Of a DNA stretch of 43,127 nt, positions 18,315 through 18,659 are shown one piece after another. The notes beneath the pieces are model-generated. The model was not told where the DNA came from, did not search any database, and was given only the letters and a program-made list of their open reading frames with translations. Location: the IMG/VR virus record IMGVR_UViG_2529293240_000022. One strand, written 5' to 3'. Every line of letters begins with the position of its first letter. Positions within the stretch are counted from its first letter, which is position 1. Source of the DNA: a virus. Lineage: Duplodnaviria > Heunggongvirae > Uroviricota > Caudoviricetes. Both the position numbers and the translations under genes were made by a program.

Positions 18315-18659
18315 ATGAAGAAAAAATACGAACTGGTTGTTAAAGGGATAAATAATTACCCGAATAAGATTACTGTTACTGTGGCACTGGAAATTGGTGG
18401 GTATCCGTCACTGTTGTTGCCAGATGTGGCGATTAGTCTTGACCGTACTGAAGATGCCACGCTGGAGTTTTACGAAGCTGAGGCGAAAAAGCAGGCGAAG
18501 CAGTTTTTCATGGATGTTGCTGCCGGGTTATGTGAAGGGGATGGTCCGTTGCCGGAAAAGCGCCCCGTAATTTTAGAGGCGCAGGATGTGTTGATAACCT
18601 ACAGAGGAAAACTACCGGGAATAATTACTGGTTCTCTGAAGACTCCACCGCTGGCCTGA
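18315..18659 (+). CDS. Hypothetical protein (114 aa) inserted between pinholin and endolysin
   Basis: ORF begins 5 nt after holin stop with GGAGAG site; no family recognised. Confidence 0.5.
   Translation: MKKKYELVVKGINNYPNKITVTVALEIGGYPSLLLPDVAISLDRTEDATLEFYEAEAKKQAKQFFMDVAAGLCEGDGPLPEKRPVILEAQDVLITYRGKLPGIITGSLKTPPLA

Follow-up and report, generated by a model that had tools for sequence, protein, structure and literature searches.

The S-R slot and the gene it holds

The window (the whole 43,127-nt stretch of DNA analysed here) carries an S-R lysis slot at positions 18095-19243, in which a 114-codon open reading frame lies between the genes for the holin and the endolysin, all three on the plus strand. 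The first gene, at 18095-18310, encodes an S21-type class II holin (pinholin) of 71 aa with a Met1/Met4 dual start (MYQMEK...). This protein scores 112.5 bits against PF04971, the phage 21 holin family, and matches phrog_9876 and phrog_20, both of which are annotated as holin; identical or near-identical holins are present in phage 86, BP-4795 and E. albertii. The holin TAA stop codon (18308-18310) is followed by four bases, AGCG (18311-18314), and then by the ATG of the 114-codon ORF, which as read from the sequence occupies 18315-18659 and ends in TGA at 18657-18659. A GGAG Shine-Dalgarno sequence for this ORF can be read directly at 18302-18305 on the plus strand, within the 3' end of the holin gene and 9 nt before the ATG. 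Downstream, a 50-nt AT-rich spacer (18660-18709, plus strand, GC 0.34) without a Shine-Dalgarno sequence forms a new leader for R, the gene of a 177-aa SAR-type endolysin at 18710-19243. The R product matches PF00959 and phrog_7 (endolysin), carries the motif E35-x8-D44-x5-T50 and has a Gly/Ala-rich, SAR-like segment at its N terminus. Further along the same strand lie the Rz i-spanin gene (19542-20009; PF03245, 165.5 bits; phrog_13) and, embedded within it, a +1-frame ORF for the Rz1 o-spanin (19762-19947) with a lipobox-like LVVSAC. The original prediction had described the ORF as tightly coupled to a pinholin gene and separated by a 50-nt gap from a SAR endolysin gene, and the sequence bears out its position, its coupling, the gap and the identity of both neighbours. 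A regulatory hairpin in the 50-nt spacer was also considered and was dropped, as the hairpin found there is no better than those of shuffled sequence (z 0.36).

The 114-aa product, previously assigned to no recognisable family, is in fact a strong member of one. It matches Pfam DUF1327 (PF07041) with 153.1 bits (cut-off 25) over profile positions 1-92 of 93 and phrog_406 with 214.8 bits over positions 1-113 of 114, and homologues in RefSeq, including those 97% identical to it, are named "YdfR family protein". Both PF07041 and PHROG 406 are annotated as of unknown function, NCBIfam has no model matching the protein, and a PDB sequence search with it returned nothing. The closest described counterparts are ORF47 of BP-4795 and an unnamed ORF of H-19B, which are likewise 114 aa long and 97% identical to the window protein (three amino-acid differences). 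The layout of BP-4795 is also that of the window, with a 4-nt spacer after S, 345 nt, a 50-nt spacer before R and the same R N terminus. In the Qin prophage of K-12, YdfR (P76160, b1555) occupies the same slot in the order essQ-ydfR-rrrQ with the same 4-nt holin junction, but its C-terminal 29 residues are unrelated to those of the window protein and its stop codon overlaps the rrrQ start, so that the 50-nt gap of the window has no equivalent there. The window gene is thus almost certainly a YdfR/DUF1327 accessory gene of E. coli lambdoid prophages in its usual slot. The gene, the family and the position have been in public annotation since H-19B, K-12 Qin and BP-4795 were sequenced, and one phage genome, published some twenty years ago, contains a near-identical copy; the literature on DUF1327 and on the H-19B and BP-4795 lysis regions holds no functional statement on the 114-aa ORF. 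As an occupant of the slot the gene is therefore a known lysis-cassette component, but not as one of known function.

Structure prediction with AF2, based on a 20-sequence alignment, places strands at residues 5-14, 18-27 and 38-43 and a helix at 50-73 (pLDDT 72-89), while residues 73-114 fall under pLDDT 50. The check thus yields a beta-beta-beta-alpha N-terminal domain, followed by a tail of low confidence, with no convincing structural relative: Foldseek searches against PDB and BFVD found none at E <= 1e-3, the best values being 0.26 and 0.013, respectively. The weak Foldseek neighbours are mostly nucleic-acid-binding beta3-alpha folds, which is a lead rather than evidence. The N-terminal domain, here called module A (codons 1-74, 18315-18536, plus strand), is supported by PF07041, the AF2 model and a 47% identity to residues 1-74 of K-12 YdfR, and bears the family signature LEFYEA; Y53 and E54 are invariant even among relatives of 25-30% identity. 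Several mosaic subtypes of the module exist, and most of their differences fall in a hypervariable stretch, residues 24-40. Module B, comprising codons 75-114 (PEKRPVILEAQDVLITYRGKLPGIITGSLKTPPLA) and the stop codon (18537-18659, plus strand), was recognised by its conservation in Escherichia A+B forms, among which residues 75-112 (PEKRPVILEAQDVLITYRGKLPGIITGSLKTPP) are almost invariant; it is missing from K-12 YdfR and from stand-alone relatives of 72-76 aa. A third module, C, is a coiled-coil-like segment of ~70 aa that is added in forms of 176 and 183 aa, and other forms are longer still, at 263-287 aa. The window protein has the architecture A+B. Module B was also considered as an independent mobile domain, an idea that was rejected because stand-alone B matches proved to be fragments, deletions or assembly artefacts, with one exception (P0152).

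The window protein has a mass of 12.4 kDa, a pI of 5.5 and a maximum Kyte-Doolittle value of 1.18 in a 19-residue window, by which measure it contains no transmembrane domain (TMD), signal sequence or N-terminal hydrophobic segment. Because it lacks a hydrophobic segment, it is predicted to be a soluble, acidic, cytoplasmic protein. No holin or antiholin family in Pfam or PHROG matches it, and it is not a membrane protein of the holin or antiholin kind.

By tblastn, the 114-aa protein has matches in 101 phage records, of which 61 are 95-99% identical; among them are H-19B and BP-4795, both Stx1 phages, as well as phage 86 and many Stx1a and Stx2c phages. In a megablast comparison, 2796 of the 5426 complete E. 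coli genomes, about half, contain the S-ORF-R segment at a coverage of 80% or more. An exhaustive profile search of 1.84 billion representative proteins, by comparison, gave just 91 matches at E <= 1e-3, and in a scan of one genome per species LEFYEA-type members were confined to Escherichia and Shigella plus two MAG bins, whose K-12-like copies are probably contaminating E. coli contigs. The family is therefore taxonomically narrow and at the same time extremely common in E. coli. Its members occupy the S21-type holin/lysozyme slot in K-12 Qin, BP-4795, 2H10, phage 86, Stx1_499, Evi and loci L018-L026. S-ydfR-R is itself a standard and very common type of cassette; the slot is typical of the family without defining it, as distant members sit in tail clusters.

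The insertion and its divergence from the flanking lysis genes

Comparison with related lysis cassettes, one of the checks proposed with the original prediction, marks the gene as an extra, since S and R are directly adjacent in 933W and DLP12. The 933W and window sequences are identical up to the holin stop codon, after which 933W has 4 nt and the R start, and the window has 4 nt, the ORF and the 50-nt spacer. The first R codons differ (MNTKIK in the window, MSRKLR in 933W), and identity resumes at ...YGLSAAVLALI. Given this identity on either side, the ORF and spacer constitute a clean indel of about 395 nt; the spacer is identical in BP-4795 and is part of the indel with respect to 933W. 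In 933W it is R itself that uses the junction of stop codon, 4 nt and ATG. The ORF has taken over the ribosome-binding context used by R in 933W, leaving R behind an AT-rich leader without a Shine-Dalgarno sequence.

Such an arrangement could suit a modulator of lysis timing, acting either in trans, as a cytoplasmic antiholin or a binder of the holin tail similar to T4 RIII or P1 LydB, or in cis, where the insertion would uncouple R from the holin stop codon, place it behind a leader without a Shine-Dalgarno sequence and lower the dose of SAR endolysin. T4 RIII, P1 LydB and the S21-71 antiholin are soluble or accessory lysis regulators, and YdfR is likewise encoded by a small, holin-adjacent gene and made at the same time, but it has no detected homology to these proteins and no TMD, and its relatives occur away from holins. 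The takeover of the ancestral ribosome-binding context of R is in keeping with a timing role, as is the constancy of the holin-ydfR junction: in Escherichia the ydfR start always lies 4 nt after the stop codon of an S21-type holin gene, in 13 of 13 readable ydfR loci. The lack of a TMD or signal sequence speaks against such a role, as does the absence of the gene from the cassettes of phage 21, DLP12 and 933W, and the overlap of K-12 ydfR with rrrQ by 4 nt means that the uncoupling required by the cis version is not general. A Keio ydfR mutant does score in a CPRG envelope-leakage screen (PMC3879167 supplement), which would favour an effect on lysis, but we suspect that this leakage is a polar effect of the kan cassette on the downstream rrrQ SAR lysozyme gene. 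Over-expression in K-12 is without growth effect (PMC13232886). On balance, a function in lysis timing is considered unlikely.

The alternative suggestion, that the ORF is a cargo (moron) gene, stands in part. The ORF is AT-richer than its neighbours, with a GC content of 0.467 (GC3 0.470) as against 0.542 (0.667) for S and 0.554 (0.618) for R, and both the clean indel and the occurrence of distant relatives in tail clusters fit a cargo gene. Searches with simple consensus patterns, which weak promoters could escape, found no sigma-70-like promoter on the plus strand upstream of the ORF, and similar patterns revealed no terminator between the ORF and R; the possibility that the ORF has its own promoter was accordingly dropped. 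Of the features of a classical moron, insertion between adjacent genes and a distinct composition are thus present and a promoter and terminator of its own are not, which makes ydfR an accessory gene in the late operon rather than a self-contained moron. Classical morons of lambdoid phages include bor and lom. Like them, ydfR has been inserted where two genes lie side by side in relatives, and it differs from its flanks in composition, but it is co-oriented with the late operon and has no detectable promoter or terminator of its own; for these reasons it appears to be expressed late and not from the repressed prophage.

On its 3' side the slot is far from uniform. K-12 has a 103-aa gene overlapping rrrQ, the window and BP-4795 have 114 aa and the 50-nt spacer, 2H10 has 183 aa and about 320 nt, and Stx1_499 has 263 aa; phage 86 combines 268 aa with a convergent 104-aa gene, and phage Evi combines 72 aa with a convergent 98-aa gene. 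The overall closest relative of this part of the window is E. coli 09-02E (L026), which is 98% identical across the flanks. Its slot (L026:2978-3313) is of the phage 86 type, holding a long-form ydfR that is annotated as a pseudogene and a convergent 104-aa gene in place of the 114-aa form. As 09-02E matches the flanks and yet carries a different slot, the S-R slot recombines independently of its surroundings.

Pairwise dN/dS values between the window gene and its homologues range from 0.26 to 0.47 in pairs without saturated dS, and the 114-codon gene is real and under purifying selection. This bears directly on whether the gene could be a neutral passenger, a selfish or decaying insert that persists through its linkage to essential lysis genes. 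Presence of the gene is polymorphic, it is dispensable for lysis in model phages, and many entries in the databases are pseudogenes, truncated copies or fusions to the holin, all of which would be expected of a passenger. The intact form nevertheless dominates: about half of E. coli genomes have an intact ORF, the dN/dS values hold across divergent copies, and in other genomic contexts the core of the domain can still be recognised at 25-30% identity. A passenger is consequently regarded as very improbable.

Within Escherichia, YdfR N-domains are far more diverse than the products of the adjacent genes, with identities of 43-100% as against 76-100% for the holins and 88-100% for the endolysins. 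One and the same holin can accompany YdfR subtypes that differ greatly, which counts against a role in lysis timing: the holins of the window and of the E. albertii locus (L020) are 100% identical and their YdfR N-domains only 67%, and in Evi the corresponding figures are 93-97% for the holin and 43% for YdfR. Co-variation of holin and YdfR was considered as a sign of interaction and was discarded, since the correlation (rho 0.49) is what linkage alone gives and identical holins accompany different YdfR subtypes.

Six stand-alone module-A proteins, of 71-94 aa and 25-42% identity, could be located in their genomic settings. None of the six lies in a lysis cassette; five are inside lambda-like tail-tip clusters (between M and L, L and K, or I and J), far from holins, and the sixth is on a short contig without informative neighbours. 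Five of the six are followed directly by a small convergent gene, as are the ydfR genes of phages Evi and 86. The partner in the Evi S-R slot is 61% identical (phrog_25324) to the partner at a tail-cluster locus, L008, and the DUF1327 genes of these two loci are only 31% identical; another family of partners, phrog_18578 (182-186 aa), turns up at three further loci. A DUF1327 gene and its convergent partner may form a two-gene mobile module. Partner genes at five loci (L015:2744-3040, L008:696-1001, L013:3317-3631, L002:3273-3821 and L007:768-1328) are all on the minus strand, and the partners belong to several unrelated PHROGs, all of unknown function.

Rapid divergence, a mosaic and hypervariable segment and a recurrent convergent neighbour that is shared between otherwise dissimilar loci are together suggestive of counter-defence or self-immunity, in which a fast-evolving late protein would neutralise a host or prophage-encoded defence, the latter conceivably being the convergent gene. 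The window, BP-4795 and K-12 copies, however, have no convergent partner, the partners themselves are of no single family, and neither the window protein nor two long forms matched a PADLOC defence HMM at E <= 0.1. This explanation is judged distinctly unlikely. The location of the relatives in tail clusters and the pairing of the same holin with divergent YdfR proteins disfavour a specific partnership with the holin or endolysin and favour a generic late accessory role, and from this comparative evidence YdfR would appear to be an accessory late protein rather than part of the lysis machinery.

Possible role of YdfR in RNA metabolism

The only functional lead comes from K-12 YdfR. Residues 1-72 of this protein were recovered when a bacterial two-hybrid library was screened with RNase G as the bait, and they gave a stronger signal with RNase E (Gopel et al., RNA Biol 2026, PMC13232886). 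In two-hybrid assays residues 1-72 gave a signal with RNase E 1-597, and full-length YdfR did so with Rne1-597 only; FLAG-Rne1-598 also co-eluted with Strep-YdfR from lysates that had not been treated with nuclease, and the Strep-YdfR eluate contained large amounts of DNase-resistant nucleic acid (PMC13232886). The co-purification could be bridged by RNA, and the authors keep open that a contaminant is the RNA binder in the eluate (PMC13232886). Over-production of K-12 YdfR was not toxic and changed few transcripts (PMC13232886). A further weak phenotype, like the CPRG leakage from a genome-wide screen, concerns streptomycin: ydfR was named among candidate survival genes, with an MIC raised threefold (PMC12924614). 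Association with RNase E and RNA has been reported for K-12 YdfR only (PMC13232886), and its extension to the window protein, through 47% identity to K-12 residues 1-72, is made with low confidence.

With that caution, the reading tentatively preferred here, which we regard as possible, is that YdfR, made late together with the holin, binds RNA and/or the catalytic half of RNase E and thereby modulates RNA decay or processing in lytic growth. The anatomy of the locus suggests that the gene would be transcribed on the Q-dependent late transcript, without a promoter of its own, and translated, in coupling with the holin, from the Shine-Dalgarno sequence and start context that serve the endolysin gene in phages without ydfR; a shared late transcript and a start context at the holin stop codon would ensure that YdfR and the holin are made together late in infection. 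By extrapolation from the 47%-identical K-12 domain, the beta3-alpha N-domain would then bind RNA and/or the catalytic N-terminal half of RNase E, and the RNA whose decay or processing is tuned would most plausibly be the long late transcript, on which both the lysis-cassette and the tail-cluster copies lie. YdfR would on this model have no part in permeabilising the membrane or degrading the wall, and would be dispensable for lysis as such. The clean indel, the relatives in tail clusters, the fast evolution of the N-domain against slowly evolving flanks and the convergent partners favour RNA and late-transcript biology over the holin.

Several points weigh against this RNA and RNase E model. 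The K-12 homologue is only 47% identical in the N-domain and has an unrelated tail, and the window protein has no Pfam dsrm match and does not qualify as a dsRBD protein, a class with an alpha-beta-beta-beta-alpha fold. The strict coupling of the gene to the holin stop codon would suit a lysis-related role as well. The co-purification was from lysate without nuclease treatment, so that bridging by RNA could account for it, and over-production altered few transcripts (PMC13232886). Probability that falls outside the preferred reading and the three rivals considered above, namely lysis timing, counter-defence and a neutral passenger, is assigned to something not yet imagined.

Phage and host proteins that act on RNase E include T4 Srd, T7 gp0.7, phiKZ Dip and RraA/RraB, and Srd contacts the catalytic N-terminal half of the enzyme. 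RapZ likewise acts on RNase E at its catalytic N-terminal half (PMC13232886). If the K-12 result transfers to the window protein, YdfR would be a small factor at this same half, as Srd and RapZ are, but it shares no sequence or fold with T4 Srd, T7 gp0.7, phiKZ Dip, RapZ or RraA/RraB, and the effect of its over-expression on the K-12 transcriptome is small.

In its widest form, which is decidedly doubtful, the model would make YdfR/DUF1327 proteins a group of Enterobacterales-restricted late-operon factors that bind RNA and the catalytic half of RNase E and control the stability or processing of the late transcript, so that a common polymorphism of the S-R slot, with or without the gene, would affect when lysis occurs, how large the burst is and how much toxin is released. 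If this were true, the transcript concerned would in Stx phages be the one carrying stx, the lysis genes and the structural genes. The gene is found in roughly half of E. coli genomes, in the cassette that times lysis and Shiga-toxin release of many Stx1 and Stx2c phages, and the RNase E and RNA association published in 2026 supplies a concrete hypothesis that is cheap to test.

Other features of the prophage

The window carries a lambdoid prophage in which the late region runs in the order Q, methylase, tRNAs, sRNA match, esterase, IS2, lysis cassette, Nu1, terminase and lambda-like head and tail genes. The Q antiterminator gene (11957-12358) is followed by a DNA methylase gene (12916-13965), three tRNA genes (Met-CAT/Ile-like, Arg-TCG and Arg-TCT; 14015-14266), an Rfam match to the STnc100 sRNA (14342-14532) and a gene for a NanS-p-like SASA esterase (14755-16608). 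The tRNA and STnc100 segment (14015-14532) and the esterase gene after it occupy what is the stx position in BP-4795 and 933W, and there are no stx genes in the window. Since stx is missing from that position, the element is an stx-less relative of Stx phages; it differs from BP-4795 and H-19B both in this respect and in having an IS2 element 55 nt upstream of S.

This IS2-like element is complete at 1331 bp (16709-18039, minus strand; IS3 family, with InsC/InsD-like ORFs) and is flanked by CTTAA target duplications at 16704-16708 and 18040-18044. It lies in the intergenic region between the esterase and holin genes, antisense to late transcription, and could be polar on the expression of the lysis and structural genes. 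The insertion point is the loop of a terminator-like hairpin (CCAGTACTTAACTGG followed by a T-run), and the closest related prophages have no IS2 in the esterase-holin gap.

Two N-terminal types of holin accompany ydfR among the loci compared (L012, L018 and K-12 essQ), MYQMEK in the window (18095-18106), BP-4795, phage 86 and Evi, and MKSMDK in K-12 and 2H10. The MYQ extension lacks the Lys to which the longer phage 21 product owes its antiholin character, and the dual-start regulation may differ in holins of the MYQMEK type.

Between R and Rz is an AT-rich gap of 300 nt (19244-19541) containing a strong terminator-like hairpin at 19334-19366, with 14 pairs followed by T-rich sequence. A short ORF at 19367-19540, which encodes 57 aa from a GTG start and has one hydrophobic segment, abuts the Rz start. 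BP-4795 and 933W have an "ant" gene at the position of this gap, and in 09-02E RefSeq annotates a 45-aa hypothetical protein there.

In the early region, two tandem matches to the Hfq-binding sRNA isrK and a match to the C4 antisense RNA (a P1/P7-type immunity RNA), about 870 nt apart, span 5837-6894, inside or beside ORFs at 5477-6628 and 6625-7497. Near the other end of the window, in the tail-fibre region, Rfam IS009 is matched with 225 bits at 42886-43084.
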